Below, piece after piece: positions 7,875 to 57,790 of a stretch of DNA of 64,000 nucleotides. The notes below the pieces were generated by a model. It was not told where the DNA came from and ran no database searches. It saw only the letters and a program-made list of their open reading frames with translations. The DNA lies in contig LBSX01000005.1 in assembly GCA_000990355.1 (NCBI GenBank), positions 4,584 to 68,583 of the forward strand. The letters run 5' to 3'. This stretch comes from Candidatus Magasanikbacteria bacterium GW2011_GWC2_37_14. Its GTDB lineage: Bacteria; Patescibacteriota; Patescibacteriia; Magasanikbacterales; UBA922. The position numbers and the translations under genes are program-made. Position 1 is the stretch's first letter, and each line of letters begins with the position of its first letter.

Positions 7875-9206
7875 ATGATCCAGCAAATTATTGATCTCCA
7901 TATCCACTCCAAATACTCCCGGGCGTGTAGTAAGAGTTTGGAATTGTCAGAAATTGCCAAGGCTTGTGCTATTCGTGGGGTAGATATTGTAGCAACAGGG
8001 GATTTTACCCATCCTAAGTGGTTTGAACATATAAAGACAAGTTTGGTGGAGGAAAATGAAGGGGTTTATAAATTGAAGGCTCCCACTCCCCCTACCCCCT
8101 CTCGGGCAGAGGGGGACAGTGAAACCCGTTTCATTATTGGTACAGAATTATCGTGCATTAAAAAACACAAAGACAAAACTCGAAGAATTCATGTGTGTGT
8201 TTTTGCTCCCAATATTGAAGTGGCAGAAAAATTTAATAACAAATTAGAAACAATGGGTTTTAATTTACGTTCTGATGGTCGGCCAATTTTAGGTTTAACA
8301 GTAAAACAGTTGTTAGAAATTATGTTAGAGACTGATGAACGAATGATTATGATTCCCGCCCATGCTTGGACGCCGTGGTTTGGTATTTTTGGTTCCAAAG
8401 GTGGCTATAATAGTTTAGAAGAAGCTTTTGAAGAATTAACGCCAAAGATTTTTGCAATTGAAACTGGTTTATCTAGTGACCCACCAATGAATTGGAGGCT
8501 TAGTAAATTGGATAAAATTGCACTAGTATCCAATTCTGATGCTCATAGTTTGGAAAAAATTGGGCGTGAAGCCAATGTTTTGGAATTTGTAGATGAAAAA
8601 GCCATTACTTATGAAAATATTTTTAACGTCATTAAGGAGAGTTGCCACGTAAAATCTGCTTCATCAGCAGATCACGTGGCTGGAAAGTTACTCTATACAA
8701 TAGAGTTCTTTCCAGAAGAAGGAAAGTATCATTATGATGGTCATGCGAATTGTAAATTTGTTTGTGCACCAGAAGAAAGTAGAAAATTGAAAAATATTTG
8801 TCCTAAGTGTAAAAAAGAATTAGTAATTGGAGTAATGAATCGCGTGACGGAGTTGGCTGACAGAACAGAAGAAGAAGCAAAAAAAATAAAACACGTTCCA
8901 TTTAAAAGTCTGGTACCCTTGCCAGAAATTATTGCTGATTGTTTTAATTGTGGAGTGAGTACCAAGAGAGTAAAAGAAGTATATAATAAGTTAATTAAAA
9001 AGTTAGGTAATGAATTTAATATTTTATTAAATATTGATACGCAAGAAATTGCGTTTACTTCAGAACCAATCATTGGTGAAGCAGTTGAGCGAGTAAGAAC
9101 TGGTAAAATTTATGTACGGCCTGGTTATGATGGCGAGTTTGGAGTAGTAAAAGTGTTTAGTGATGAGGAAAGAGTTGGCAAAAAACAAATAGGCCTTGAG
9201 TTATAA
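7875..9206 (+). CDS. PHP-domain metal-dependent phosphoesterase family protein with C-terminal Cys4 cluster
   Basis: DLHIHSKYS PHP motif, HAWTPW, CKFVC..CPKC; contains in-frame palindromic insertion at 8081-8118. Confidence 0.6.
   Translation: MIQQIIDLHIHSKYSRACSKSLELSEIAKACAIRGVDIVATGDFTHPKWFEHIKTSLVEENEGVYKLKAPTPPTPSRAEGDSETRFIIGTELSCIKKHKDKTRRIHVCVFAPNIEVAEKFNNKLETMGFNLRSDGRPILGLTVKQLLEIMLETDERMIMIPAHAWTPWFGIFGSKGGYNSLEEAFEELTPKIFAIETGLSSDPPMNWRLSKLDKIALVSNSDAHSLEKIGREANVLEFVDEKAITYENIFNVIKESCHVKSASSADHVAGKLLYTIEFFPEEGKYHYDGHANCKFVCAPEESRKLKNICPKCKKELVIGVMNRVTELADRTEEEAKKIKHVPFKSLVPLPEIIADCFNCGVSTKRVKEVYNKLIKKLGNEFNILLNIDTQEIAFTSEPIIGEAVERVRTGKIYVRPGYDGEFGVVKVFSDEERVGKKQIGLEL
8081..8118 (+). 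repeat. GC-rich palindromic mini-element (core CCCCTCTCGGGCAGAGGGG) inserted in frame in CDS
   Basis: encodes APTPPTPSRAEGD; near-identical elements in three other CDS. Confidence 0.7.
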
Positions 9207-9788: not shown

Positions 9789-9860
9789 GCGTCCATAGCT
9801 CAGCGGTAGAGCACCACCCTTATAAGGTGGCCGTCGATGGTTCAAATCCATCTGGACGCA
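9789..9860 (+). tRNA. tRNA with anticodon UAU (putative tRNA-Ile, AUA-decoding)
   Basis: 72-nt cloverleaf folded by hand: 7-bp acceptor GCGTCCA/TGGACGC, anticodon stem CCACC/GGTGG, loop CTTATAA, T-loop TTCAAAT; no encoded CCA. Confidence 0.75.
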
Positions 9861-9868
9861 CATCTTTC

Positions 9869-9999: not shown

Positions 10000-11025
10000 A
10001 TGATAAGTAAAAATAAAAAAATTATTATAAAAGATTTAGATAGCAAAATTCGTTTGGATGTTTTTTTGACTGAAAAACTAAAATTAACTCGTTCTAAAAT
10101 TCAAAAATTGATTGAGCAAAAATTAATTTTGTTAAACAAAGAATTACCTAAAAAAACTGGTACCATGATTTTGAATGGTGATGAGATTGAAATTATTAAA
10201 CCAGTAATTGTTAAAAAAATTATAACCAATAAAATAGAAAAAAATTTGAAAACAGAAATTGCTAATTTGCCAATTGAAATTGTCGCCGAAACTAGTGATT
10301 ATTTGGTGTTAAATAAACCAGCTGGTATATTGGTCCATCCAACCGAAGCCGGAGAAGAAAATACATTGGTAAATTGGTTGCTAACAAAGTATCCCAAAAT
10401 AAAAAAAGTTGGTGACTCCCACTCCCCCCACACCCCCTCTCGGGCAGAGGGGAAAAACATAAGACCTGGTATTGTTCATCGTTTGGATAAAGAAGCTTCG
10501 GGATTATTGGTAATTGCCAAAACTCAGGCTATGTTTGAACATTTAAAAAAACAATTTCAAAATAGAGAGATAAATAAGGAATATTTAGTTTTGGTACATG
10601 GTACAGTACAAAAAAATTATGATCAAATTGATTTTGAAATAGATCGTGGTCATGATGGTAAAATGGTGGCTCGGCCCAAAACTGATAAATTTAAAGTAAA
10701 GAATGTAGAAAAAATTCAAGAAGGCAAAGAGGCTTTGACCGAGTTTGTAATAGAAAAGAATTATGTTCGTTATACTTTGCTTCGTGTAAAAATTTTTACT
10801 GGTCGTACCAATCAAATTCGGGTACATATGATGGCTTACAGTCACCCAGTAGTTGGTGATAAATTATATTTTAATAAAAGATTAAATAGAAAACGAGATA
10901 CAGAATTAAACAGAGTATTTTTGCATGCTGTAAAGCTTGGTTTTACTGATTTAAATGGTTATGAGCAAACTTTTACAAGTAAATTGCCCAAAGAATTGGA
11001 AAGTTTTTTAAAAGACTTAAATTAA
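10000..11025 (+). CDS. RluA/RluD-family 23S rRNA pseudouridine synthase (S4 domain + PUS)
   Basis: LDVFLTEKL...SKIQKLI S4 motif, HRLDKEASGLLVIAKT catalytic motif; track ORF start 9883 lies inside tRNA, so start set at MISKNK; in-frame insertion at 10417-10452. Confidence 0.85.
   Translation: MISKNKKIIIKDLDSKIRLDVFLTEKLKLTRSKIQKLIEQKLILLNKELPKKTGTMILNGDEIEIIKPVIVKKIITNKIEKNLKTEIANLPIEIVAETSDYLVLNKPAGILVHPTEAGEENTLVNWLLTKYPKIKKVGDSHSPHTPSRAEGKNIRPGIVHRLDKEASGLLVIAKTQAMFEHLKKQFQNREINKEYLVLVHGTVQKNYDQIDFEIDRGHDGKMVARPKTDKFKVKNVEKIQEGKEALTEFVIEKNYVRYTLLRVKIFTGRTNQIRVHMMAYSHPVVGDKLYFNKRLNRKRDTELNRVFLHAVKLGFTDLNGYEQTFTSKLPKELESFLKDLN
10417..10452 (+). repeat. GC-rich palindromic mini-element inserted in frame (encodes DSHSPHTPSRAEGK)
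   Basis: TCCCACTCCCCCCACACCCCCTCTCGGGCAGAGGGG; same family as 8081. Confidence 0.7.
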
Positions 11026-11026
11026 T

Positions 11027-11620
11027 ATGTCTAAAAAAATTTTGGTAATTGCTGGCCCCACTGGTTCTGGAGAAAGTACAGTTACTAGAGAATTAATAAA
11101 AAGATATCCTATTTTTACGAGGTTGGTTACTGCTACCACTCGTGAACCACGTCTCAATGAAAAAGATGGACAAGATTATTATTTTTTTTCTGAAGAAGAA
11201 TTTAAAAAAGAAGTGACAATTGGCAATATTATTGAACATACTTTTGTAACTGGTCGGGCTGTATATTATGGCACTTATAAACCGGATTTAGAACAAAAAC
11301 TTAATGCTGGTTTTAATATTATTGTTAATCCAGATGTGGTTGGGGCCAGGTATTACAAAAAAAATTATGAGGCTACTACTATTTTTATTAAAACCGAATC
11401 AATTAGTGTTTTGGAAAAGCGTCTTAAGGGACGGGATCCCAACATTAGTGAAGTGGAGTTAAAAAGGCGTTTAGAGGCGGCTAAATATGAATTGGATAAT
11501 GAAGAGAGTTTTTATGATTATGTATTGGTAAATAAAGATAATAAATTAGAGGAAGTTTTGACTGAAATTGTAGAAATTTTGCAAAAAGAAGGTTATATTT
11601 TAGCCCTCCCCCCTAGGTAG
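11027..11620 (+). CDS. gmk: guanylate kinase
   Basis: GPTGSGEST P-loop, TTREPR motif. Confidence 0.9.
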   Translation: MSKKILVIAGPTGSGESTVTRELIKRYPIFTRLVTATTREPRLNEKDGQDYYFFSEEEFKKEVTIGNIIEHTFVTGRAVYYGTYKPDLEQKLNAGFNIIVNPDVVGARYYKKNYEATTIFIKTESISVLEKRLKGRDPNISEVELKRRLEAAKYELDNEESFYDYVLVNKDNKLEEVLTEIVEILQKEGYILALPPR

Positions 11621-11731
11621 ATAGGAAAAATTTAGGCTCTTGACTTTTTTTGGGTTTTATAGTAACATAACGTCACTTTATGTATAACTGACGTTGGCAT
11701 TCTAGACCAACCTCTCATTAACAATATTAAT

Positions 11732-12166
11732 ATGAATGAAGATAATAGAACAAATTTAGCTCCTGGCATGATTATTAAAGTCCACCAGAAGATTAAAGAA
11801 ACCAATACCAAAGGTGAAGAAAAAGAACGTATTCAGGTTTTTGAAGGTATGGTAATTGCGGTAAAACATGGTAAAGAACCAGGTGCTACTGTAACCGTAA
11901 GAAAGATCTCCAATAGTGTAGGTGTAGAGAAAATTTTCCCTATTCATTCGCCAGTGGTTGAAAAAATCGAAGTAGTGCGCCAAGTAAAGGTGCGCCAGGC
12001 TCGCCCTTACTATTTGCGTGACTATAAAAAGAAATTAAAAGAAATTAAAGGTAATAAAGTAGAAAAGGTAGACAACGAAATATTAAAGAACAAAAAAGAA
12101 ATTGAACCAGTAGACATTTTGCCAGAAGTAATAGAAGAAAAAGTAGTAGAAGAAACTAAAGAATAA
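11732..12166 (+). CDS. rplS: 50S ribosomal protein L19 with C-terminal K/E-rich extension
   Basis: [12 protein letters not shown]...[29 protein letters not shown] matches L19 core. Confidence 0.9.
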
Positions 12167-12170
12167 AATA

Positions 12171-12195
12171 AAAGCCGCGTTCATCGCGGCTTTTA
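12171..12195 (+). terminator. rho-independent terminator after rplS
   Basis: AAAGCCGCG-TTCAT-CGCGGCTTTT. Confidence 0.6.
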
Positions 12196-12214
12196 AAATC
12201 TCTGGATTTGTGAT

Positions 12215-12285
12215 AATCTGGGTGGGTAAGGAGGAGAGAGAGGTGGCTTCCGCCCAAGGCGGACCAGCCTCGGGCTGGGAGTGGT
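12215..12285. repeat. GC-rich mini-hairpin cluster (CCGCCCAAGGCGG, CCAGCCTCGGGCTGG)
   Basis: GC-rich island in AT-rich spacer, same style as hairpin arrays at 12641, 48336, 57627. Confidence 0.4.
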
Positions 12286-12302
12286 TATATTAATAATTTG
12301 GT

Positions 12303-12545
12303 ATGCATTACGTTTACATTTTGAAAAGTGTAAAAAGTGGAAAATTGTATAAGGGTTTTACTAATGATTTAAAAAGAAGAATAAAAGAACATAATTTAGG
12401 TAATAGCGAATTTACATCCAATAATGGTCCTTGGAAGTTGGTGTATTATGAGGCTTTTTTGTCAAAAAAGGACGCGCAACAAGAAGAAATTTTTCTAAAA
12501 ACAGGTAAGGGGAGAGAAAGAATAAAATATTTACTAACAATATAA
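12303..12545 (+). CDS. GIY-YIG nuclease family protein
   Basis: HYVYILKSVKSGKLYKGFTNDLKRRIKEHN GIY-YIG motif. Confidence 0.8.
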   Translation: MHYVYILKSVKSGKLYKGFTNDLKRRIKEHNLGNSEFTSNNGPWKLVYYEAFLSKKDAQQEEIFLKTGKGRERIKYLLTI

Positions 12546-16644: not shown

Positions 16645-17847
16645 ATGAATAAAACAGGCATTGTTTTAAAACCAGGTCGTGATAAAGCCATAAAAAATAA
16701 ACATCATTGGATTTTTTCCGGAGCAGTTTCATATATTTCCGAATTTAGTAATGGTGAAATTTTGCCAGTTTATAATTCTACTGGAGAATTACTAGGCCAT
16801 GCTTATTGCAACAAGAATACTTCTATTTTGGGAAGAATGATTAGTTTTGGCAATACTGATCCAGTCAAAGAATTAGAAAAAAATTTGGAAAGCGCGATTG
16901 CGATGCGTAAAAGTTTGTTTAATGAAAAAATAACTAATTGTTATCGTCTGGTTAATTCCGAGGGTGACAATATTCCGGGTTTAATTATAGATAAATATGC
17001 TGGTGTTTTGGTAATTCAAAGTGCGACAGCGGGTATTGATTTATTAAAACCACAAATTGTAGAATTTTTAGTAAAAAAATTAAAACCCGTGGCAATTTAT
17101 GAAAAATCCGATTTATCATCTCGCCGTGAAGAAGGTTTGACTATGAGCGAAGGTTTGGTATATGGTAAAGAAGTAAAGAATGTAGAAGTAATTGAAAATG
17201 GTTTAAAGTTTGTAGTGGATTTGGTGAATAGCCAAAAAACTGGTTTTTTTCTTGATCAGCGGGAAATGCGGGTTTGGGCAGGCGAATTAGCCAAAAACAA
17301 ATCTGTGCTTAATTGTTTTGCCTATACTGGAGGTTTTTCTTTGTATGCCGTTCAAGGCGGGGCTAAACAGGTAGACACAGTAGATATTTCTAGTGAAGCA
17401 ATACAGAGAGCCGAGGAAAATTTTAAATTAAATGGTTTTCTCCCGCCTCCCCCTACCCCCTCCTCGGGCATGAGGGGGCAATTTGGATTTATTACGGCTG
17501 ACATTTTTGAATTTTTACGAGCTGAAAAATTAAATTATGATTTAATTATTTTGGATCCGCCAGCTTTTGCTAAAAAGAAAACCGATGTTATCAAAGCTTG
17601 TCGAGGCTACAAAGATATTAATCGCTTGGCACTACAAAAAATGCCAGCTGGTAGTATTTTAATCACTTCTTCTTGTTCTTATCATGTAGACGAAAAACTC
17701 TTCCAAACTGTAGTTTTTCAAGCTGCGGTAGAAGCAAACAGAAAGGTCCGGATAATTGGTCGTCATCATTTAGCACCCGACCACCCAATAAATATCTTTC
17801 ATCCCGAGGGGGAATATTTAAAAAGTTTGGTTTTGTACATAGAGTAA
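16645..17847 (+). CDS. rlmI: 23S rRNA (cytosine-C5)-methyltransferase RlmI-like (PUA + SAM MTase)
   Basis: LNCFAYTGGFS motif I, ILDPPAFAKKK motif IV; in-frame insertion at 17441-17478. Confidence 0.8.
   Translation: MNKTGIVLKPGRDKAIKNKHHWIFSGAVSYISEFSNGEILPVYNSTGELLGHAYCNKNTSILGRMISFGNTDPVKELEKNLESAIAMRKSLFNEKITNCYRLVNSEGDNIPGLIIDKYAGVLVIQSATAGIDLLKPQIVEFLVKKLKPVAIYEKSDLSSRREEGLTMSEGLVYGKEVKNVEVIENGLKFVVDLVNSQKTGFFLDQREMRVWAGELAKNKSVLNCFAYTGGFSLYAVQGGAKQVDTVDISSEAIQRAEENFKLNGFLPPPPTPSSGMRGQFGFITADIFEFLRAEKLNYDLIILDPPAFAKKKTDVIKACRGYKDINRLALQKMPAGSILITSSCSYHVDEKLFQTVVFQAAVEANRKVRIIGRHHLAPDHPINIFHPEGEYLKSLVLYIE
17441..17478 (+). repeat. GC-rich palindromic mini-element inserted in frame (encodes LPPPPTPSSGMRGQ)
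   Basis: TCCCGCCTCCCCCTACCCCCTCCTCGGGCATGAGGGGG. Confidence 0.7.
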
Positions 17848-22316: not shown

Positions 22317-23075
22317 ATGCCCATAATGCGCTTGCAAAAATTTATTGCGGACCAAGGAATTTGTTCTCGGCGAAAGGCCGAAGAACTTATTTTGGCTAAA
22401 AAAGTAAAAGTAAATGGAGTAGTAGCCGAAATTGGTTTAAAAATTGACAGTGAGAAAGATAAGGTGGAAGTGGTAAATTTCAATTCTCCCACCACCCCGG
22501 CTTTCAGCCACCCCTCCTCCGGCAGGAGGGGACACGTGTACATTGCCTTGAACAAACCAGTGGGTTTTATTTGTTCGGCAAGTAATGAACAGGGTAAAAC
22601 TGTTTTGGAACTTCTAACAAAAGAAAATTATTTTGGTAAAGAAAAATTAGAAATTAAAGATCGGGTTTATCCCGTTGGCAGGCTAGACAAAGATTCAGAA
22701 GGTTTAGTATTGCTTACGAATGATGGTGAACTTACCAATAAATTAATTCATCCACGTTATCAACATGAAAAAGAATACGAAGTAGGGTTAAACAAACCAT
22801 TGGGAAAACCTGAGGTAAAGATTTTAGAAAATAGTATGGAAATTGGCCCTGGAGAACGTGTTTGGGGAATAAAAATAAAAGATCTTGTTTGCAAAAATGA
22901 TCAAACTATAGCTACAGTGATTTTGCACGAGGGCAAGAATCGTCAAATTAGACGGATGTTTGGTAAATTGGGCTATAAAGTGATGTTTTTACGTCGGGTG
23001 CGTATTGGTAAATTAAAATTAGGCACTTTGCCTTTGGGTAAATGGAAAATGATTGGCAAAATTCAAATAATTTAA
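22317..23075 (+). CDS. RsuA/RluB-family rRNA pseudouridine synthase (S4 domain)
   Basis: RLQKFIADQGICSRRKAEELI S4 motif, GRLDKDSEGLVLLTNDG catalytic motif; in-frame insertion 22487-22531. Confidence 0.85.
   Translation: MPIMRLQKFIADQGICSRRKAEELILAKKVKVNGVVAEIGLKIDSEKDKVEVVNFNSPTTPAFSHPSSGRRGHVYIALNKPVGFICSASNEQGKTVLELLTKENYFGKEKLEIKDRVYPVGRLDKDSEGLVLLTNDGELTNKLIHPRYQHEKEYEVGLNKPLGKPEVKILENSMEIGPGERVWGIKIKDLVCKNDQTIATVILHEGKNRQIRRMFGKLGYKVMFLRRVRIGKLKLGTLPLGKWKMIGKIQII
22487..22531 (+). repeat. GC-rich palindromic mini-element inserted in frame (encodes SPTTPAFSHPSSGRRGH)
   Basis: CCCCTCCTCCGGCAGGAGGGG palindrome core. Confidence 0.7.
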
Positions 23076-23144: not shown

Positions 23145-23903
23145 ATGTCTGCAGATTTTTCTTCCATTTCAACAAAACCTTGGTACAAAACTGGCAAAGG
23201 TATTGGTTTTTTATTTTTAGGTTTGATTGTGGTTGTGGTCTTATTAGTTTTTTTGGGCTTTTTTGCTTATTATGCGGTAACTATCAAATATGGTGATGCC
23301 ACAGGTTTAAGTGAACAGTTTTCCACACAAAAATTTAGTGTAAATAAAAATGCCGATGTTACAGCAGGTTTAGAAAAAATTGACGATATTAATAAATATA
23401 TTCATGATTTTAATCCAGTTTTGGGAAATATTAATTCGCCAGTTACGGTTGTGGCTTTTGTGGATTTTGAATGTCCTTATAGTCAAGAAGCTTTTTTGGG
23501 TTTTAATAATTTAATTAAAAAATACGAACCAGTAATTAAAGTTGTTTTTAAACATTTGCCACTTACTGATTTACACCCCAATGCTTTGAATGCCAGTTTG
23601 GCAGGCGCTTGTGCCAACACCCAAAATAAATTTTGGCCTTATTATAATAATTTATTTACAAACAAAGATTTAACTACAGAAGGGTTATTAAAACAAGCTG
23701 TGTCTTTGGGTTTAAATGATATAGACTTTACCAATTGTTTTAATAATAAAATAACACTAGATGACGTTAATATTGATTTAACAGATGCTGTAGCTCTTGG
23801 GGTGCGTGGTACTCCTACTTATTTTGTAAATGGGGTTAAATTGGAAGGGGTAATCGACGAAGCAACTTGGGATAAAATTATTTTACAAGTTTTAAATAAA
23901 TAA
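23145..23903 (+). CDS. DsbA-family thiol:disulfide oxidoreductase, membrane-anchored
   Basis: N-terminal TM, thioredoxin CPYS active site, FVNG cis-Pro region. Confidence 0.75.
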   Translation: MSADFSSISTKPWYKTGKGIGFLFLGLIVVVVLLVFLGFFAYYAVTIKYGDATGLSEQFSTQKFSVNKNADVTAGLEKIDDINKYIHDFNPVLGNINSPVTVVAFVDFECPYSQEAFLGFNNLIKKYEPVIKVVFKHLPLTDLHPNALNASLAGACANTQNKFWPYYNNLFTNKDLTTEGLLKQAVSLGLNDIDFTNCFNNKITLDDVNIDLTDAVALGVRGTPTYFVNGVKLEGVIDEATWDKIILQVLNK

Positions 23904-30349: not shown

Positions 30350-30377
30350 GTAGAGACGCAAAATTTTGCGTCTCTAC
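30350..30377. repeat. REP: 28-bp perfect palindrome GTAGAGACGCAAAATTTTGCGTCTCTAC (copy 1, just downstream of RAYT stop)
   Basis: perfect palindrome with 5' GTAG; 3 copies in window. Confidence 0.8.
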
Positions 30378-30389
30378 AGTGAAACGTTA

Positions 30390-30956
30390 TTATACCAACA
30401 ATCCCTCAGGATTATTTCTATCACGGTCCCACATTGAGGGATTATTGAAAATATATTGTTGAATATTGTGTAGCGAAATTTCGTCACGAATGATGTGGTC
30501 GTAAAATCGTGCTTGCCAGATGAATGAGACGTTGTTTGTTGTAGCCCATTTTGATACACCAATTTTAAATCCGCGAATAATTGATGATAAATTTTTGGAT
30601 TGTGGGCCAAATTTATTGTGGTAAAGTTTGTCGTTGTCGTGTAGAGACGCAAAATTTTGCGTCTCTACAATTGGCGGATTGTTGTTAATTATAATAATTC
30701 CATGTACATGATTTGGCATTATCACAAATTCGTCTAATGTTACAAACGGAAAATGTTTTGGTATTTCCAACCAATATTTTGTGGCCATTTTTCCAATATC
30801 ATTCAAAACAATTTCATCACCAACTATTTCACCAAAATAACAGAATTTATTTTTGGTGCAAATAGTTATAAAATAATAACCCGTTTGGCTATAGTCATAT
30901 CCAGCCAAACGGGTTGAAGGTATTAAAAATTTATTTCTAAATAAATTGTCGGTCAT
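30390..30956 (-). CDS. REP-associated tyrosine transposase (RAYT; IS200/IS605 Y1 HuH family)
   Basis: RLAGYDYSQTGYYFITICTK N-motif, HVHGII HuH motif, WQARFYDHIIRDE...YIFNNP C-terminal Tyr motif; contains REP copy in frame. Confidence 0.8.
   Translation of the reverse strand: MTDNLFRNKFLIPSTRLAGYDYSQTGYYFITICTKNKFCYFGEIVGDEIVLNDIGKMATKYWLEIPKHFPFVTLDEFVIMPNHVHGIIIINNNPPIVETQNFASLHDNDKLYHNKFGPQSKNLSSIIRGFKIGVSKWATTNNVSFIWQARFYDHIIRDEISLHNIQQYIFNNPSMWDRDRNNPEGLLV
30641..30668. repeat. REP copy 2, in frame inside RAYT CDS (encodes VETQNFASL)
   Basis: identical 28-bp palindrome. Confidence 0.8.
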
Positions 30957-35887: not shown

Positions 35888-37101
35888 AATCTATAAATTT
35901 CTCGACCCAGATGTTGATTTGGTCGATGGTAGAGTAGAGACGCAAAATTTTGCGTCTCTACTCTAAATGGCATAATTTCAAAACCAATTTTTTTCAAATC
36001 TTTTTCCCAATTTATCGCTAACCAATCATTACCAATTTTAAATTTAGGGATAGCAATTACTATTACACCTTGTGGTTCCAGAATTTTGTAAAATTCTTGG
36101 CAAGCTTTTAAATAAAGACTTTTTAATTCAGTTAATTGTTTTTCTAATTGGTTTTTGTTTTCACGACCAGTTAAGGGTTTGCCCAGATAAGTCTCAGTAA
36201 CAATTAAAGTAACAGAATTGTTTTTTATTTTTTTAGTTAATTGAGTGGCGTCACTAATAATAAATTGGCAACCAATATTTTTAAGATTATATTTTTCTTT
36301 TAACCAAAGGAAATTTTTTTCACTGTCAACAACGGCTTTTTCCGAAATGTCAGCAGCAATTAAATTATTAAAATTCATGAGAGTGGCTTCATTTAATATT
36401 GTACCCGAGCCACAAAATGGGTCCAAGAGAATTTTGTTTTTAATCACCCCGGCGCCCTCGGCAACTCCCCCCGCCTGCCTTGACGGCATGTCGGGCAGGC
36501 CTGCCCCCTCTTGGTAAAAGGGGGATAAAGCGAGATTAATCATTATCTTGGCAAGCTTGGGCGGTAGCATGCCAGACAAGTCATCACTGTCTGGTCTTTG
36601 GTAGTCACGTTCAGCCATTTCTTCAAATGGCTGTAGAGCGGTCGTAACAAAAATTTGCTTATTGATTACTGTTAAATCCGATTTTTTCTCTACTAATTTG
36701 TTGTAAAGAATAGTAGCGGTATTTTTTGGCTCAATGTAGCGTACAGAATAACCGTTGGTTTTTAAAGCTTTTTTAAGTTCCAAAGCTAGTCTTTGATCAT
36801 TTAAAGAATATTCAATTTTACCAGTAGGGCAATTAGTTATTAAGTATTCTTGTAGGTGAGTTAACAACCCCCCTTCGCCCCCCTTTATTAAGGGGGGAAT
36901 TTCGGTAGCAATTTTTATAGTGCCACCCAGCTGTTTGATTAATTTTGCTGAATCTAGTTTTTTGTTGGTTTCAATTAATAAATATTGGTTGGAATTTTGT
37001 TTTAGGGTTTTAATATTTTTAAGTTTTAATGACGAAAAAACCGCCTGGATTTCGGCGGTGGAAATAAGAGGTTGGTGCCCTAATTGAAAAAGGAAATTCA
37101 T
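35875..37101 (-). CDS. UPF0020/THUMP-type RNA (guanine-N2) methyltransferase-like protein
   Basis: LDPFCGSGTILNEA SAM motif I; carries three in-frame repeat insertions (36447-36527, 36868-36897, REP at 35934-35961). Confidence 0.6.
   Translation of the reverse strand: MNFLFQLGHQPLISTAEIQAVFSSLKLKNIKTLKQNSNQYLLIETNKKLDSAKLIKQLGGTIKIATEIPPLIKGGEGGLLTHLQEYLITNCPTGKIEYSLNDQRLALELKKALKTNGYSVRYIEPKNTATILYNKLVEKKSDLTVINKQIFVTTALQPFEEMAERDYQRPDSDDLSGMLPPKLAKIMINLALSPFYQEGAGLPDMPSRQAGGVAEGAGVIKNKILLDPFCGSGTILNEATLMNFNNLIAADISEKAVVDSEKNFLWLKEKYNLKNIGCQFIISDATQLTKKIKNNSVTLIVTETYLGKPLTGRENKNQLEKQLTELKSLYLKACQEFYKILEPQGVIVIAIPKFKIGNDWLAINWEKDLKKIGFEIMPFRVETQNFASLLYHRPNQHLGREIYRFKKS
35934..35961. repeat. 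REP copy 3, forms in-frame 3' end of methyltransferase CDS (VETQNFASL...)
   Basis: identical 28-bp palindrome, extended palindrome TAGAGTAGAGACGC..GCGTCTCTACTCTA. Confidence 0.8.
36447..36527. repeat. GC-rich composite hairpin element, in frame in CDS (encodes ...QEGAGLPDMPSRQAGGVAEGAG...)
   Basis: about 47 bp (GGCCTGCCCGACATGCCGTCAAGGCAGGCGGGGGGAGTTGCCGAGG) shared in reverse orientation with 48451-48500. Confidence 0.7.
36868..36897. repeat. GC-rich hairpin CCCCCCTTTATTAAGGGGGG in frame in CDS (encodes IKGGEGGLL)
   Basis: perfect stem of 6-7 G:C pairs inside AT-rich coding sequence. Confidence 0.55.
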
Positions 37102-42689: not shown

Positions 42690-43013
42690 ATGGACGATCT
42701 CAAGAAATTCACCCTGGATGCTTCCACGTCGGAAGCGCTCGCGCAGTCGCTCGAGGCTCTCAACAATTTCTTGCTCGGACAGAGAGTCACCCGGCGACAC
42801 TCGGTCGCCCAGGCAGGCTGGCTCTTCAAGATCCTCTTGGAGTACAGGGACAGCCCCAGCGCCAACGGGCACCCCCAACTGGCTATTGCCCGGACACTGG
42901 AAGAAGCCCAGAAACACCGGGGGCTGGGGAAGTCGGTGGATCTCTATCTCCACCAGGCCACCCCCGCCAGCGAGGTCATGGAGTTCTACTTCGTCTGGCA
43001 CATCGTCCGCTAG
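42690..43013 (+). CDS. hypothetical 107-aa protein on a high-GC (about 60%) islet
   Basis: GC3-rich codon usage consistent with real coding in a high-GC donor; candidate TTGACA-17-TAAAAA promoter in adjacent AT-rich DNA. Confidence 0.4.
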   Translation: MDDLKKFTLDASTSEALAQSLEALNNFLLGQRVTRRHSVAQAGWLFKILLEYRDSPSANGHPQLAIARTLEEAQKHRGLGKSVDLYLHQATPASEVMEFYFVWHIVR

Positions 43014-48039: not shown

Positions 48040-48279
48040 ATGATGTACAACAATAACAAAGAAAATGCAAAACCCATAGTAAGATATTGTCATTATTGTG
48101 TAAATAAACAAACAGCAGTAGATTACAAAGATGTACAATTATTACGTCGTTTTGTTTCCTCTTATTTAAAGATTGCTCCTCAACGTCGCAGTGGTTTGTG
48201 TGCACTCCACCAACGTAAAGTTGCTAATGCTATTAAACAAGCTAGAGTTGCTGGTTTAATGGGATTTGTGTCGAAGTAA
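48040..48279 (+). CDS. rpsR: 30S ribosomal protein S18
   Basis: CHYCVNK...DYKDVQLLRRFVS S18 signature. Confidence 0.9.
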   Translation: MMYNNNKENAKPIVRYCHYCVNKQTAVDYKDVQLLRRFVSSYLKIAPQRRSGLCALHQRKVANAIKQARVAGLMGFVSK

Positions 48280-48300
48280 AGTTTATAAAGTCTATAAAGT

Positions 48301-48336
48301 AAAACCGTCCCGCAACCTGCGGGACGGTTTTTTTCT
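48301..48336 (+). terminator. rho-independent terminator after rpsR
   Basis: AAAACCGTCCCGC-AACC-TGCGGGACGGTTTTTTT. Confidence 0.7.
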
Positions 48337-48565
48337 CCCCCTACAAGGGGAGGATTACGAAATGTGTTTGTGTGCGCGTGAACGAGTGATTGAACGTCGT
48401 CGCTGTCCCCCTCTTTCCCAACCTGCCTGCCGGTAGGCAGGGAGGGGGTAGGCCTGCCCGACATGCCGTCAAGGCAGGCGGGGGGAGTTTGCCGAGGCTT
48501 GCACAAACTCCGGCAACTCCACCGTCCGCCCTGGGCGGGCACCTCCTCTTGGTAAGAGGAGGATT
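48336..48565. repeat. array of GC-rich hairpin modules (includes CTCCCCCTACAAGGGGAGGATTACGAA and the GGCCTGCCCGACATGCCGTCAAGGCAGGCGGGG module)
   Basis: modules shared with 36447-36527 (reverse orientation) and 57763-57790. Confidence 0.7.
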
Positions 48566-48600
48566 AAAAAACACTCCGCTAATTAGCAGAGTGTTTTATA
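48566..48600 (-). terminator. hairpin plus T-run, candidate terminator for minus-strand lipoprotein gene
   Basis: AAAACACTCCGC-TAATTA-GCAGAGTGTTTTAT. Confidence 0.35.
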
Positions 48601-48720
48601 TTAACCCTCGGTTCTCCACAACACACTTATCTAAATATAAATGTATTCTGGAGATCGGAACCGAGGGTTCAGTGCCGATCATCCTTGGGGGGTGGTCGGC
48701 CGGGAGTGGCCTGGTGGGGT

Positions 48721-49101
48721 TCAACGCCCGCAGTTGAAGAGCTTGTGACTGCAGTTGGGGGTGGGGTCGCAGACATCACCACTACCGTCCTTGTCGACGT
48801 CGGTCTGGTCCGAGTTTGGTTTCTCGGGGCAGTTGTCGCAGACGTCGCCCACACCGTCCTTGTCGAAGTCGCGTTGGTCGTGGTTGAAGGTCCGCACCAA
48901 TGGGCAGTTGTCGATGCGGTCGGGGATGTTGTCCCCATCCACGTCGGAGTTGCGTTCGGCTTCGGCGGCCGACTGCTTCTGTCCGGCCTGGTAGTCTTCC
49001 CAGGCCTTCTCTCTGTCGGACGCTGGCCCACGCATCATGAGGACACAGCCTGAGAGATTTAGCACCATCGCCCACAGGGCGATAAGGATCATGCGGTTCA
49101 T
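48721..49101 (-). CDS. lipoprotein with thrombospondin type-3 (calcium-binding) repeats, on high-GC islet
   Basis: lipobox LNLSGC, three DxDxDGxxDxxDNC TSP3 repeats; GC about 60%, GC3-rich codons. Confidence 0.6.
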
Positions 49102-49263
49102 GATTGCCTTTCAGCCCCAATGGGGCAGTGGTTAACCGCTTATTTTAGCAAAAAATTTGGCTAAATTAAGCGATTTACAACTATAAAAATATTTTATATA
49201 CTAACGGCGTATTATAGCACAAATTTGCCTTTTTGTCAAGAAGGTGTTATCCACTCCTTTAAT

Positions 49264-49292
49264 TTGACAGTTCTTTTTTTATGAGGTATACT
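49264..49292 (+). promoter_or_regulatory. sigma70 consensus promoter TTGACA-17-TATACT with about 220-nt leader before rpoB
   Basis: perfect -35, near-perfect -10. Confidence 0.6.
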
Positions 49293-49512
49293 GTTGTCAC
49301 TTTTCTCTCAGGGACACATTTGATTAGCAATTTGTCTGAACTTGAAAACCTGGGGTGTCGTACTCAAAAATACCTAATTTAAAGGGTTTTCGGGTAAGTA
49401 CCTACAGCATGTTGGAAAAAATACTTCGACAATAAATAATATTTTTGAGCTTCCTTAATAAAGGAAATTTTTTGTTATCTAAAAAATAATTTTTTAAAAT
49501 AATTTTATTTAT

Positions 49513-52500
49513 ATGCCAATTTTCAAACGTCAGCCTTTAAAAATAAAAGAACGTCAGTTCTTTACCGATAAACGCGAAGCCATACCTTTGCCAGATTTAA
49601 TTCAAATCCAAAAGGATTCTTATAACTGGTTTGTAAAAAATGGCGTGCGAGAATTGTTTGAAGAAATTTCTCCAATTACTGATTTTACTGGCCGTGATTT
49701 GGAATTGTATTTTGAAGATTATTATATTGATGAACCAAAATTTGATGAAGTAACTTGTCGTGAAAAAAATATTACCTATGAAGCGCCACTCCGGGTAAAT
49801 GCCAAATTAATTAATAAGCGCACTAGTAAGAGTGACACCCAAGAAATTTATTTGGGTGATATTCCAGTAATGACTCCTCGCGGAACTTTTGTGGTAAACG
49901 GTATTGAACGTTGTGTGGTGGCCCAGCTTATTCGTAGTGCCGGCGCTTTCTTTACTGCCGAGAATGTACGTGGTCGCCGTTATTATGGAGCAAAAATTAT
50001 TCCTAATCGTGGAGCCTGGATTGAAATTGAAACTGATTTAAATAATGTCGTTTGGATTAAAGTAGACCGCAAAAGAAAAGTAGCAGCCACATCTTTGCTT
50101 CGCGCTTTTGGTATGGGTAATGACGAAGATATTATTAAAGCTTTTAAAGATGTAAATAGTCATCCCAATGTTGATTATGTAGAAGCGACTCTAAAAAAAG
50201 ATGCCGCTAGAAATGAAGATGATGGTTTGATTGAAGTTTATCGTCGTATTCGCCCAGGTGATTTGGCTACTTCCGACAATGCCAAGAGTTTAATTCATGC
50301 CATGTTTTTTAATTTTGACCGTTATGATTTGGGACGTGTAGGTGTTTACAAATTTAATACTAAATTTGAATTGAATTTAAAAGAAGATGATTATGAAAAG
50401 AAAGAAGAAAGAGTGTTATCTTTAGAAAAAATATTATTAGTTTTAAAAGAAGTAGTGCGTTTGAATGTTACTCAAGAAGAACCAGATGATATTGATCATT
50501 TGGGAAATCGACGTTTGCGCGCGGTTGGTGAATTGGTACAAAATCGTTTTCGCGTGGGTATGGCCAGAATGGAACGTATTGTAAAAGACAGAATGAGTAC
50601 TTATGAATTGGAAAGTTTAAGTCCAAATCGTCTTATCAATGCTCGTCCGGTAATTGGTGCTGTTCATGAATTTTTTATGAGTTCCCAATTATCCCAGTTT
50701 ATGGATCAAATAAATCCTTTGTCTGAATTGGAACATAAACGTCGTGTTTCGGCCTTGGGACCCGGAGGTTTGTCCCGTGATCGTGCTGGCTTTGAAGTTC
50801 GGGACGTTCACACCACTCACTATGGTAGAATTTGCCCAATTGCTACCCCCGAAGGTCCAAATATTGGCTTGGTTGGTCATTTGGCTAGTTTTGCCAAAGT
50901 AAATAGTTTTGGCTTTTTGGAAACACCTTACCGAAAAGTGGCTCAAGAAAAAGGTAAAAAACCAAAAGTTACCAATGAAGTTGTTTATTTAAATTCTTTT
51001 CAAGAAGAAAGAATAATTACTGTAAGTGCTAATACTGTTGTTGACAAAGATGGTTATATTTTGGGCGTAAGAGTTCCAGCTCGTATTAAAGGTGAGCCAG
51101 GAGTAACTGAAGTAGAAAATATTGATTACATGGATGTGGCTTCCAATCAAATTTTAAGTATTGCTACTTCTTGTATTCCATTTTTGGAACACGATGATGC
51201 TACTCGCGCTTTGATGGGTTCAAACATGCAACGCCAAGCAGTGCCTTGTATTTGTCCCGAAGCTCCTTTGGTTGGTACTGGCATCGAAGGCAAAGCCGCC
51301 GAAAATAGTGGTCATGTGTTGCTTAGTGATTGTGATGGCGAAGCAACTTATGTAGATGGCATGCGAATAGAAATTACCAATAAAAAAGGTGAAATTAAAA
51401 AATATCGTTTAAACAAATTTGTTCGTTCCAACGCTTCTAGTTGTATAGACCAACGTCCATTGGTAAATTTGGGTGATAAAGTTAAAAAAGGTCAACCAAT
51501 TTGTGATGGCCCATCTACAGATCAAGGTGAATTGGCCTTGGGGCAGAATGTTTTGGTTGCTTATATGGTGTGGGATGGTTTTAACTACGAAGATGCGGTA
51601 ATTGTTTCCGAACGTTTGGTACAAAAAGACAAATATACTTCGGTTCATATCGAAGATTATAAAATTGATGTACGTGAAACAAAATTAGGACCAGAAGTAG
51701 TAACTGCCGACATTCCAAATGTTTCTGAAGAAAAATTAAAAAATTTGGATGCCGAAGGAATTGTGCGTATTGGTGCCGAAGTTCAATCTGGAGATATTTT
51801 GGTAGGTAAAATTACGCCAAAGGGTGAAACTGAATTATCTCCTGAAGAACGATTACTTCGCGCCATCTTTGGAGAAAAAGCCCGAGATGTACGTGATTCC
51901 TCACTTTATTTGGAACATGGTGAACATGGTAAAGTAATTGATATTAAAATTTTCTCGGCCGAAAATGGTGACAAATTACAGCCAGGCGTAATTAAACAAG
52001 TACAAATTACCGTGGCTGATTTGCGCAAAATTCAAGTGGGTGACAAAATGGCTGGCCGTCATGGAAACAAAGGTGTTATTTCCAAAGTAGTGCCAGTAGC
52101 CGATATGCCATTTTTGGAAGATGGTACCCCAGTAGATATTATTTTATCTCCTTTGGGTGTTATTTCTCGTATGAATTTGGGGCAATTGCTAGAAACCCAT
52201 TTGGGTTTGGCAGCCAATGCTTTGGGATACAAAGCCGCTACCCCTACTTTAAATGGAGTTACCGAAGAACAAATTAAAGCCGAATTAGTTAAAGCTGGTT
52301 TTCCAGCTAGTGGTCAATTACAACTTTGTGACGGCCGTACTGGTGAACCATTTGATCACAAAACTACTGTGGGTTATCCTTACATGCTCAAATTAAACCA
52401 CATGGTAGAAGACAAAATTCACCAACGTTCAATTGGTCCATACAGTTTAATTACTCAACAACCTTTGGGTGGCAAAGCCCAATTTGGTGGACAGCGTTTT

Positions 52501-52818
52501 GGAGAAATGGAAGTGTGGGCCTTAGAAGCATATGGCGCCGCCCATACTTTACAAGAAATTTTAACTATCAAATCCGATGATGTACCCGGACGTTCCAAAG
52601 CTTATGAAGCGATTATTAAGGGTGAAAAAATTACCCGGGTTAATTTACCAGAATCATTCAATGTGTTGGTTAGAGAATTGAAAGGTTTGGCACTGGATGT
52701 AGAACTTTTGTCTAGAAATCAAGATGGCACTTTTCGGGCAGTAAGCGAAGAAGAATCAATCAAGAAGCCCGAAGAAGAGAATCGTGAAAGAGTAAAGACA
52801 GAAACAGTTGAAGAATAA
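49513..52818 (+). CDS. rpoB: DNA-directed RNA polymerase subunit beta
   Basis: 1101 aa, conserved throughout. Confidence 0.98.
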   Translation: MPIFKRQPLKIKERQFFTDKREAIPLPDLIQIQKDSYNWFVKNGVRELFEEISPITDFTGRDLELYFEDYYIDEPKFDEVTCREKNITYEAPLRVNAKLINKRTSKSDTQEIYLGDIPVMTPRGTFVVNGIERCVVAQLIRSAGAFFTAENVRGRRYYGAKIIPNRGAWIEIETDLNNVVWIKVDRKRKVAATSLLRAFGMGNDEDIIKAFKDVNSHPNVDYVEATLKKDAARNEDDGLIEVYRRIRPGDLATSDNAKSLIHAMFFNFDRYDLGRVGVYKFNTKFELNLKEDDYEKKEERVLSLEKILLVLKEVVRLNVTQEEPDDIDHLGNRRLRAVGELVQNRFRVGMARMERIVKDRMSTYELESLSPNRLINARPVIGAVHEFFMSSQLSQFMDQINPLSELEHKRRVSALGPGGLSRDRAGFEVRDVHTTHYGRICPIATPEGPNIGLVGHLASFAKVNSFGFLETPYRKVAQEKGKKPKVTNEVVYLNSFQEERIITVSANTVVDKDGYILGVRVPARIKGEPGVTEVENIDYMDVASNQILSIATSCIPFLEHDDATRALMGSNMQRQAVPCICPEAPLVGTGIEGKAAENSGHVLLSDCDGEATYVDGMRIEITNKKGEIKKYRLNKFVRSNASSCIDQRPLVNLGDKVKKGQPICDGPSTDQGELALGQNVLVAYMVWDGFNYEDAVIVSERLVQKDKYTSVHIEDYKIDVRETKLGPEVVTADIPNVSEEKLKNLDAEGIVRIGAEVQSGDILVGKITPKGETELSPEERLLRAIFGEKARDVRDSSLYLEHGEHGKVIDIKIFSAENGDKLQPGVIKQVQITVADLRKIQVGDKMAGRHGNKGVISKVVPVADMPFLEDGTPVDIILSPLGVISRMNLGQLLETHLGLAANALGYKAATPTLNGVTEEQIKAELVKAGFPASGQLQLCDGRTGEPFDHKTTVGYPYMLKLNHMVEDKIHQRSIGPYSLITQQPLGGKAQFGGQRFGEMEVWALEAYGAAHTLQEILTIKSDDVPGRSKAYEAIIKGEKITRVNLPESFNVLVRELKGLALDVELLSRNQDGTFRAVSEEESIKKPEEENRERVKTETVEE

Positions 52819-56744: not shown

Positions 56745-56781
56745 AAAATCGTCCCAAATTAGTTGGGACGATTTTTTTATT
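56745..56781 (+). terminator. rho-independent terminator after rpoC
   Basis: AAAATCGTCCCAA-ATTA-GTTGGGACGATTTTTTTATT. Confidence 0.7.
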
Positions 56782-56883
56782 ATACTCACGTACTAGCGTA
56801 CTAGTACAGTAGTGCGTTTGTTAAGACAAAATACTTTTGGGAAGGGGGGACACAGAACTGCGTCCCCAGAGGAGGGAAGTGAA

Positions 56884-57525
56884 CTACCGGAAGAGTACGC
56901 ACCGCGGGGGCACGATCAGGCTGGCGGGGTTGACACCGTCCCAGCTGATCAGTCCCTGGAGCACCATGTTTGTCATGTGCGACTGCCACGCCCGTTCGAC
57001 TTCGTTGACGCGCTTGGCCAAGGAGTCGGGGGTGTCGTCATCGCGGATCAAGACCGGGTAGTGGAAGAAGACCGGTCCTCGGTCGAATTCTTCGGTGACG
57101 AAGTGCATGCAGACCGCGCTGGCGGTCAGCTCGCCTTGGTGGAAGGTGGCCATCACGGCTTCGTGCACGTGGTGGCCGTACATGCCCGGACCGCCGTACT
57201 TGTACAACGGACCGGGGTGGATGTTGATGGTCTTCTTGGGGTCGAGACCCCTGACCAACTTCAGCCAGCCGGACAGCGCGACGAGGTCGGGCTGGAAGGC
57301 GTCGACGAGAAGCTGATATTGGTCTACCGACCAGGGTGCGGGCATGTGAACGAATTTGACGCCCAATTTTTCGGCGCGTCGTTCTACACCACCACCTCGC
57401 ACGTTGGAAACTACGGCCACGATGTCCGCCTGGAGAACTCCGGTGCGGGAATTCTCCACGAGTTCTTGGAAGCCAGAGCCTCCACCCTCCCTGGAACCCG
57501 AAGCGAATACGAGAATCCTTTTCAT
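56884..57525 (-). CDS. PurN-like formyltransferase (stand-alone formyl_trans_N domain, 213 aa) on high-GC islet
   Basis: MKRILVFASGS N-terminus, NIHPGPLYKYGG and HFVTEEFDRGPV motifs of GAR formyltransferase family; GC about 60%; start set at MKRIL (track ORF starts upstream). Confidence 0.7.
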   Translation of the reverse strand: MKRILVFASGSREGGGSGFQELVENSRTGVLQADIVAVVSNVRGGGVERRAEKLGVKFVHMPAPWSVDQYQLLVDAFQPDLVALSGWLKLVRGLDPKKTINIHPGPLYKYGGPGMYGHHVHEAVMATFHQGELTASAVCMHFVTEEFDRGPVFFHYPVLIRDDDTPDSLAKRVNEVERAWQSHMTNMVLQGLISWDGVNPASLIVPPRCVLFR

Positions 57526-57626
57526 GTCTGAGCCTTTCTGGTTGTTGTTCACCACTCCCAAAAATATTTTGTAAATAACTAAACTATTGGTTAGCTTAGC
57601 GCTAAATATGGGAATTGTCAATGGTA

Positions 57627-57790
57627 TTCCCCCTTAGAAAAGGGGGAATAAGGGGGTTGTTGGTAAACCCTCCCCTTGTAGGGGAGGTACCCCGAGTATA
57701 CGGGGTGGTGGGGTTCGTAGTTCTAACATGAACCCCCACCCTCCGACTGCGACGTCGGAGGACTCCCCCTACGAGGGGGAGGATTACGAA
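57627..57790. repeat. array of six consecutive GC-rich hairpins (TTCCCCCTTAGAAAAGGGGGAA, CCCTCCCCTTGTAGGGGAGG, CCCCGAGTATACGGGG, GGTGGGGGTTCG..GAACCCCCACC, CTCCGACTGCGACGTCGGAG, CTCCCCCTACGAGGGGGAGGATTACGAA)
   Basis: last module nearly identical to 48336-48362; CCCCGAG..CGGGG module matches 12646-12664. Confidence 0.7.

Follow-up and report, generated by a model that had tools for sequence, protein, structure and literature searches.

A probably imported thrombospondin type-3 lipoprotein gene in a variable rpsR–rpoB slot of a Magasanikbacteria genome

Bacterial surface proteins often contain thrombospondin type-3 (TSP3) repeats, and horizontal gene transfer into Patescibacteria is likewise already known. 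This analysis concerns a small TSP3 lipoprotein gene located between rpsR and rpoB in a 64,000-nucleotide (nt) stretch of DNA, hereafter the window, from Candidatus Magasanikbacteria bacterium GW2011_GWC2_37_14 (contig LBSX01000005.1). The gene is probably the imported cargo of a moron-like unit in a variable slot between these two genes. The closest described proteins are COMP and thrombospondin-2, whose type-3 repeats have the same DxDxDGxxDxxD loops and CDNCP cysteine pattern. However, the lipoprotein has three repeats in 126 amino acids (aa), lacks the EGF, lectin-like C-terminal and coiled-coil domains, and carries a bacterial lipoprotein signal in place of a eukaryotic secretion context. 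Among bacteria, Myxococcus MtsC, MtsD and TraB, the OmpA-family protein 5WTL and large proteins sorted by the type IX secretion system (T9SS) are also extracytoplasmic and built on the same repeat. The lipoprotein is far smaller than these and has no OmpA, MYXO-CTERM, T9SS or other partner domain. It presents the thrombospondin calcium-binding repeat in minimal form, with a predicted lipid anchor, in a bacterium of the candidate phyla radiation (CPR).

The genetic setting also has described counterparts. Phage morons and single-gene islets likewise consist of one gene with its own predicted promoter and terminator and an atypical composition, placed between genes that are adjacent in relatives. 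In contrast to morons, the TSP3 unit is chromosomal, lies between ribosomal-protein and RNA-polymerase genes and not in a prophage, and has no viral relatives among the sequences found; scans of viral contigs with TSP3, with a neighboring GC-rich islet (islet 1) and with a 28-nt hairpin element returned nothing. Integron cassettes and chromosomal superintegrons likewise combine a promoter-proximal open reading frame (ORF) with a following imperfect palindrome of attC size, and unrelated ORFs stand before the same palindrome. The rpsR–rpoB locus, however, has no integrase, attI, cassette array or attC cores, and its hairpin is single-copy. A survey of aquifer Patescibacteria described transfers of single genes and of islands in CPR genomes from groundwater, with most of the exchange taking place among Patescibacteria, and noted that ancient transfers lose their compositional signal (PMC12455944). 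The formyltransferase of CPR/DPANN type in a further islet (islet 3) fits this survey, whereas the TSP3 cargo keeps an extreme contrast in GC content at third codon positions (GC3, 0.8 vs 0.25) and occupies a recurrent slot beside rpoB. New here are the findings that a sister species shares the variable slot, that GC-rich islets recur upstream of rpoB, and that the GC-rich genes are systematically mis-annotated.

The TSP3 gene and its product

The gene and the parts of its product are located as follows.

48721..49101, minus strand: prolipoprotein coding sequence (CDS), 126 aa, three TSP3 repeats (Pfam TSP_3, codon-position GC)
49045..49101, minus strand: predicted signal peptide and lipobox (direct translation: MNR, a 12-residue hydrophobic stretch, L-S-G-C19)
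48763..48948, minus strand: TSP3 repeat region, aa 52-113, six cysteines (aligned to COMP and thrombospondin-2)

The ORF is a genuine small prolipoprotein gene, because its product has a TSP_3 domain and matches COMP and thrombospondin-2, and because its GC content by codon position is 0.60, 0.41 and 0.80 (GC1, GC2 and GC3). An earlier note, made from the letters of the window, had described an ORF of about 60% GC with a lipobox between rpsR and rpoB, and translation, GC windows and the neighboring genes bear this out. TSP_3 (PF02412) is the sole Pfam family of the protein, found in three stretches with 47.5 bits against a gathering cutoff of 25 (E=1.4e-12), and the Asp-rich loops and paired cysteines of the family are present. 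The same note had counted three DxDxDGxxDxxDNC repeats; the number stands, and the third repeat lacks a literal DNC. Matches in the PDB include human COMP (3fby, E=2.8e-38) and thrombospondin-2 (1yo8, E=3.4e-32). Residues 52-113 form a 60-residue unit that aligns to COMP 165-224 and thrombospondin-2 252-310. About 55-60% of the residues are identical, the D and C positions of the type-3 repeats are kept, and the mature part has six cysteines. At the DNA level, the gene contains a 69-nt direct repeat (48757-48810 and 48826-48879, family D12, 76% identical).

The N-terminus combines a positive charge, a hydrophobic stretch and the motif [LVI][ASTVI][GAS]C. Given its signal peptide and lipobox, the protein is predicted to pass through Sec and to receive a lipid anchor at Cys19, which would leave a mature lipoprotein of about 108 aa made of a short helical linker and the three repeats. 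In a screen of the window ORFs by regular expression and hydrophobicity, which is crude, only the TSP3 ORF passed. Calcium binding is predicted by homology with COMP and thrombospondin-2. An oxidized extracytoplasmic protein would be consistent with the six cysteines and with the DsbA-like gene that the window carries at about 23145-23903. In the proposed mechanism, the product would be exported by Sec and lipid-anchored at Cys19, its disulfides would form with the help of the DsbA-like protein, and at the surface it would bind Ca2+ and possibly act as an envelope or adhesion module of an episymbiotic cell. As a CPR bacterium, the host is expected to lack an outer membrane. Because CPR bacteria are regarded as living attached to other cells, surface proteins that they have newly gained are candidates for a part in host interaction.

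Homology searches bear on where the gene came from. A word-indexed search of 5.8 billion clustered proteins gave, as close relatives, only two near-identical variants of this locus. The other matches were two eukaryote-like thrombospondin fragments, with P0003 lying beside TSP_1 and TSP_C exons. The fact that these fragments are the only non-self matches sharing words, together with the identity of 55-60% to the type-3 repeats of human COMP, would suit a gene derived from a eukaryotic thrombospondin or COMP gene. Such a derivation is very improbable. An exhaustive HMMER search returned 34,779 TSP3 cluster representatives with up to 63% identity, the top ones being giant repeat proteins, and the sampled matches carry bacterial domains (T9SS tail, FlgD_ig, SBBP, SdrD_B, dockerin). 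Furthermore, the gene is free of introns and carries a Shine-Dalgarno site and a lipobox of bacterial type, and its resemblance to COMP can be explained without a eukaryotic origin. The earlier note had regarded the repeats as OmpA-associated modules typical of high-GC Proteobacteria and Actinobacteria. The searches do not bear out this assignment: the protein has no OmpA domain, and the OmpA-family chain 5wtl matches it weakly (E=1e-4) and through the repeats only. The best matches are instead metazoan COMP and thrombospondin-2, a partial NCBIfam match to Myxococcus MtsC (E=8e-16, far under the family cutoff), and T9SS, SBBP and SdrD_B proteins.

Foreign composition and the variable rpsR–rpoB slot

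The rpsR protein of the window is KKQ27830.1 of GW2011_GWC2_37_14, an uncultured CPR bacterium from Rifle aquifer groundwater, and an rpoB-based genome scan gave Magasanikbacteria in all matches. From rpsR to rpoB, the locus is arranged as follows.

48040..48279: rpsR, upstream neighbor (PF01084)
48301..48331, plus strand: rpsR intrinsic terminator, hairpin and T-run, left edge of native DNA (direct reading; self-complementary 31-mer; folding)
48335..48565, no strand: GC-rich hairpin array of modular short palindromes, a dispersed repeat family (GC ~0.60-0.66)
48562..48597, minus strand: intrinsic terminator of the TSP3 transcript (13-bp stem, then U6; self-complementary 30-mer)
48593..48712, minus strand: conserved 3' block, consisting of a long hairpin (48603-48669) and a GC-rich tail (sister-species alignment)
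49102..49139, minus strand: 5' untranslated region, rich in GC; GAAAGG at 7-12 nt ahead of the ATG resembles a Shine-Dalgarno site
49211..49239, minus strand: consensus sigma-70 promoter facing the TSP3 gene (TTGACA, 17 nt, TG-n-TATAAT)
49261..49512, plus strand: native promoter (49264-49292) and conserved leader of rpoB, bounding the variable segment on the right
49513..52818: rpoB, downstream neighbor

The foreign origin of the TSP3 gene is supported by its GC3, its start signal and its absence from relatives. In 200-nt windows over 48300-49100 the GC content is 0.60-0.62, compared with a mean of about 0.36 for the 64-kb window. GC3 is 0.80 in the TSP3 gene and 0.21-0.29 in the native rpsR, ssb, rpoB, rpoC, pif1 and GNAT genes. 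A search for AAGG and AGG motifs found a Shine-Dalgarno-like motif ahead of none of 43 native genes and of all three GC-rich islet genes (Fisher's exact test, ~7e-5). In each islet gene it takes the form A(A)AGGC, located 7-12 nt ahead of the ATG. Native start contexts are AT-rich, for example AATAAT-ATG. The 80 related Magasanikbacteria rpoB loci (~1.3 Mb) encode no relative of the TSP3 protein. The earlier note had proposed a horizontally acquired surface-protein gene and had named, as evidence to the contrary, the same gene at native GC in related low-GC genomes; composition, start signals and these 80 loci all agree with its proposal.

It is also possible to regard the islet as an assembly chimera or contaminant, or as a chance open frame in GC-rich repeat DNA. 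Stop codons are few in GC-rich DNA, six overlapping ORFs of more than 100 aa occur here, and some short assemblies end inside the hairpin repeat: L001, L002 and L006, among the compared loci, stop at about 48462-48471, because short assemblies break in the repeated hairpin element. Nevertheless, this explanation is extremely unlikely, and the chimera in particular is effectively excluded by identity across several assemblies. The search with the rpsR protein gave ten contigs carrying it, of which three were read; two of these reach the islet and cover both junctions. Contigs from ENA (44.8 kb) and JGI (60.6 kb) match window 38040-58279 at 100% identity over 20,240 nt, and the junctions, for which the earlier note had asked for validation, are thus reproduced in independent assemblies. 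L001 and L002, which are short contigs from other assemblies, span the gene and the rpoB-side junction. In addition, the 3' block occupies the same place in the sister species, and the domain match is highly significant in one frame only.

Comparison with relatives defines the slot. The gap is empty in most relatives. In line with the synteny check proposed earlier, rpsR directly precedes rpoB in 11 relatives; the two genes are 318-942 nt apart there, compared with 1233 nt here, and no credible gene lies between them. These empty gaps would represent the ancestral empty site. The sister species, represented by L092 and L093 from other samples, shows 88% nt identity in rpoB and rpoC, with a synonymous divergence (dS) of 0.58-0.63 (0.63 for rpoB), and has the identical gene order rpsF-ssb-rpsR-[gap]-rpoB-rpoC-[formyltransferase]-GNAT. 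Its gap (L092) holds orf152, a gene for 152 aa with a GC3 of 0.69, which is unrelated to the TSP3 protein and has no family match. Neither genome contains remnants of the other's cargo gene. On the 3' side of the cargo, window 48593-48712 (120 nt) is 88.5% identical to L092 9677-9795, and this homology begins 0-9 nt past each cargo stop codon. On the rpoB side, homology is continuous from 49261, just ahead of the rpoB promoter. The variable segment therefore spans about 48713-49260 and includes promoter, 5' untranslated region and CDS. Since unrelated cargo stands before the same 3' block in the sister species, the rpsR–rpoB gap is a variable cargo slot, and it offers a concrete locus for following gene flow into streamlined genomes.

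The neighborhood of rpoB is also enriched in GC-rich segments among the 80 relatives. With such a segment defined as exceeding the locus median by at least 0.18 in a 300-nt window, 10 of 25 lie within 2 kb upstream of rpoB, a region that makes up 11.4% of the sequence (binomial P=2.5e-4), although this expectation ignores long essential genes that do not tolerate insertions, so that some of the enrichment may simply be due to an intergenic region that tolerates insertions. No tRNA or rRNA genes were found among the segments near rpoB, and the ORFs of the GC-rich segments are mostly divergent from rpoB and belong to no Pfam family. One GC-rich ORFan family occurs at differing rpoBC positions (L009 6740-7204 and L062 19157-19678; 57% aa identity, GC3 0.74 and 0.82), which suggests mobile cargo genes shared among Magasanikbacteria. 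A further GC-rich islet (0.63-0.71) lies at 11200-12462 of the low-GC contig L090 and has on its minus strand a gene for a cysteine-rich protein of secreted type, longer than 323 aa, which runs off the end of the locus.

The TSP3 gene, with its promoter, Shine-Dalgarno site, 3' hairpin and terminator, would form a moron-like single-gene unit, as judged from consensus matches to a promoter and terminator of its own. The promoter agrees with sigma-70 at 12 of 12 positions and has the extended -10 TG, as a consensus match only. The earlier note had suggested a native promoter on the basis of an AT-rich region next to the ATG. A perfect consensus match is there, but it sits in a segment not conserved in the sister species and so may or may not be native; the 38 nt nearest the ATG (49102-49139) are GC-rich and contain the ribosome-binding site, and the DNA is AT-rich only from 49140. 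The rpoB promoter matches 11 of 12 sigma-70 positions, and its leader is kept in six Magasanikbacteria. The hairpins, which the note had placed before the gene, are real and strongly folded, but in the gene's own orientation they lie 3' of it, in the order stop codon, tail, long hairpin and 13-bp terminator. The arms of the long hairpin are 48603-48614 and 48658-48669 (-38.7 kcal/mol, z=-9.1 vs shuffles). The terminator, with a folding energy of -17.5 kcal/mol (z=-7.5), is built like the native terminators of this genome, as AAAA-stem-TTTT. The hairpin array lies past the terminator and is probably outside the TSP3 mRNA.

If the gene was imported, its donor would have been GC-rich and would have used Shine-Dalgarno sites. 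DNA uptake followed by recombination would be the most likely route, and the recombination may have been anchored in the highly conserved flanking genes and/or in the shared hairpin block. Competence-type pilus genes are present in the window. With neither an integrase nor a transposase annotated at window 19.5-64 kb or in the 8 kb beyond, the unit is unlikely to encode its own mobility.

Companion islets, hairpin arrays and competing readings

Two more GC-rich islets occur in the window.

42690..43013, plus strand: islet 1, a 107-aa gene without a Pfam or NCBIfam match (GC3 0.81)
56884..57525, minus strand: islet 3, formyltransferase (PF00551, E=1.8e-16, GC3 0.78), with a hairpin array at 57620-57790 alongside

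These islets bear on the age of the GC-rich state. The TSP3 gene could be a long resident, belonging to a GC-rich gene class whose composition is maintained by selection or biased recombination. An ortholog of islet 1 at the same site in L091 (1632-1955) has a GC3 of 0.76 at a dS of 0.69 (ratio of nonsynonymous to synonymous divergence, dN/dS, 0.19), while the flanks have a GC3 of 0.27-0.33 and a dS of 0.93-1.11. A two-state decay estimate from native third positions foresees a GC3 of at most 0.65 for islet 1 after that divergence, and the three islets are nearly equal in GC3 (0.78-0.81). Long residence is nonetheless quite improbable. The TSP3 gene is missing from the sister species and all other relatives, the islet 1 comparison is a small sample of 107 codons, and a dS below that of the flanks also suits a later transfer between lineages. 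Islet 1 thus reflects either slow amelioration here or such a transfer, and the GC-rich state of the islets is not a simple clock.

Islet 3 follows a different course from the rpsR–rpoB slot. Its homologs are CPR/DPANN proteins with 60-69% identity, whose genes have the low GC of native DNA in other genomes. A formyltransferase also lies at the same site in the sister species (L093 1990-2900), with 63% aa identity, 66% nt identity over the CDS and a GC3 reduced to 0.54, which also stands against maintained GC. Its dS and dN between window and sister are 1.67 and 0.30, compared with 0.58 and 0.04 for rpoC. Third-position differences comprise 72 strong-to-weak and 20 weak-to-strong changes, a bias of the kind that amelioration predicts. 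Xenologous replacement at this second slot (slot B) was considered and is ruled out, as a neighbor-joining tree and reciprocal best matches pair the formyltransferases of both species. The pattern fits vertical descent with fast change of the CDS and, putatively, amelioration in the sister lineage. The flanks 56780-56883 and 57526-57640 (promoter and 5' untranslated region, and 3' untranslated region) are about 93% identical to the sister by alignment reading; these conserved untranslated regions may be regulatory, and no Rfam family matches them. The contigs L087 and L089, which carry formyltransferase homologs, have no genes in common with the compared loci.

The hairpin arrays are independent dispersed repeats that do not belong to the TSP3 gene unit. 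The region 48280-48720 folds as one piece at -207.8 kcal/mol (z=-10.2), and 48420-48565 folds with z=-4.7. An inverted, in-frame copy of a 48-nt core (48442-48489) lies within a methyltransferase gene (36463-36510, 98% identity). The array end 48335-48361 is found again at 57763-57790, and 48335-48393 recurs in L090 with no GC-rich gene alongside. L090 also contains a 165-nt array that is 91% identical to 57629-57790 and again adjoins no GC-rich gene. A metagenome scan with the array-end motif gave one locus, L090. Rfam, at gathering and permissive thresholds, contains no family for the hairpins or the untranslated regions.

Arrays border both slots in both species, and this is one of the observations that could unite hairpins and GC-rich cargo in a single cassette-exchange system. 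Such a system would be integron-like or of the IS200/IS605-PATE type, with the 3' hairpin as the site for an enzyme encoded elsewhere that swaps cargo in fixed slots. Unrelated cargo stands before the same 3' block with a breakpoint within ~10 nt of both stop codons, an imperfect palindrome of ~68 nt lies immediately 3' of the ORF in an attC-like placement, and single-gene GC-rich islets recur upstream of rpoB in other Magasanikbacteria. However, no integrase or transposase is found within ~45 kb, the long hairpin has no second copy in the window or the compared loci, the 3' ends differ at islets 1 and 3, L090 has an array with no cargo gene, and the formyltransferase of slot B was inherited vertically and not swapped. 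The ends of the 3' hairpin (ACTGAAC... and ...GGGTTAAT) fit neither of the R''/R' core motifs, and the attC cores (GTTRRRY / RYYYAAC) are absent by reading. The integron/attC interpretation is rejected, since the motifs do not fit, the hairpin is single-copy and no integrase lies within that distance. As for an IS200/IS605-type element, only the 3' hairpin is conserved, and the window (64 kb of genome covered) contains no transposase. Overall, exchange by such an enzyme is rather unlikely. A broader, integrase-less form is also unlikely: low-GC Magasanikbacteria would keep fixed cargo slots by rpsR/rpoB and rpoC, in which GC-rich genes with Shine-Dalgarno sites are swapped before hairpin blocks, with the arrays as recombination substrates. 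If true, it would be a kind of cassette exchange not yet described for CPR bacteria. A mechanistic link between arrays and slots may exist but is not required.

Several observations weigh against import of a working surface-protein gene from a distant GC-rich donor. No donor emerged from the searches, since the list of 34,779 representatives is dominated by giant repeat proteins, and the N-terminal 50 aa have no relatives. The AlphaFold2 model, built from a 4-sequence alignment, is uninformative and gives no structural support: its mean predicted local distance difference test score (pLDDT) is 42.7, residues 58-126 fall below 50 with the repeats modeled as disordered, and nothing beyond the signal helix and a helix in the linker (27-50) is formed. 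There is no second lipobox candidate in the 64-kb window by the crude screen, and neither Lgt nor signal peptidase II is among the Pfam annotations of window 19.5-64 kb, in which no search was aimed at lgt or lspA. The high GC content may be no sign of recent arrival, given that islet 1 has kept its GC3 of 0.76-0.81 across a dS of 0.69. The formyltransferase of islet 3 is of CPR/DPANN type, as judged from its homologs, and hence would not come from a distant phylum.

The alleles of the gene in other assemblies belong to the same discussion. L002 lacks exactly one 69-nt unit of the TSP3 gene, in frame, and L001, a gapped scaffold, has a 25-nt frameshifting deletion. These deletions within the same population may hint at non-uniform selection on function, or the assemblies may be imperfect. 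The gene could accordingly be decaying or non-functional imported DNA that is tolerated and not used, a reading that the codon usage, extremely unlike that of the host, and the single lipoprotein candidate of the window would also suit. It is nevertheless distinctly improbable. The ORF is intact and identical in long contigs of several samples, and it has a perfect consensus promoter, a Shine-Dalgarno site and a terminator. The 69-nt loss removes one exact in-frame repeat, which is typical of, and compatible with, repeat-number variation of a surface protein. The frameshift in L001 could be a null allele or could stem from misassembly of the scaffold. Import of the TSP3 lipoprotein gene as cargo of a moron-like unit is retained as the probable explanation.

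Public annotation conceals this gene. GenBank and the 100%-identical contigs call another frame, 48782..49120 on the minus strand (112 aa, KKQ27831.1), and the correct frame is called in other assemblies (P0001, P0002). An exact look-up of the 126-aa protein gave no record, because gene callers picked the other frame. All three GC-rich genes of the window are mis-called publicly: a wrong-frame 151-aa protein is annotated over 42690..43013, the wrong-frame 112-aa KKQ27831.1 over the TSP3 gene, and a wrong-strand 239-aa protein over the formyltransferase. Evidently, the gene finder behind the public annotation was adjusted to AT-rich DNA, and imported GC-rich genes are thus systematically hidden from protein-based surveys of CPR genomes.

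Other features of the window

The region upstream of rpoB contains further conserved elements. The rpoB 5' leader at 49300-49475 is shared with L007, L008, L010, L020, L044 and L092 in the form …TGTC…GTGCGTGTACTC…ACC…CATG… and ends in a terminator-like hairpin with a T-run. This leader may be an attenuator or regulatory RNA, and Rfam has no match for it. A DnaA-box-like TTATCCAC lies at 49247-49254, and TTATCCAC or TGTGGATAA recurs upstream of rpoB in L007, L008, L032 and L085; GC skew gives no origin signal at this region. A palindrome, GCTTAATTTAGC…GCTAAAATAAGC, occupies 49140-49173 and has relatives in other species.

Palindromic elements also occur within and between native genes. Mini-hairpins related to the arrays are found in frame within at least four other native genes. 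GC-rich in-frame hairpin elements in native AT-rich housekeeping genes lie at 8072-8130, 10405-10459, 17430-17488, 22481-22550 and 36435-36525, with a core like CCCCCTCTCGGGCAGAGGGG. They contribute about 15-30 residues such as GDSHSPHTPSRAEGK, and one forms a 16-aa insertion relative to E. coli RluD. These in-frame insertions resemble Rickettsia palindromic elements. A perfect 28-nt palindrome, GTAGAGACGCAAAATTTTGCGTCTCTAC, occurs three times (30350-30377, 30641-30668 and 35934-35961) and is probably a repeated terminator or an element like repetitive extragenic palindromes (REP-like). Finally, a tRNA-Ile with the anticodon TAT, which is uncommon in bacteria, is located at 9789-9861.

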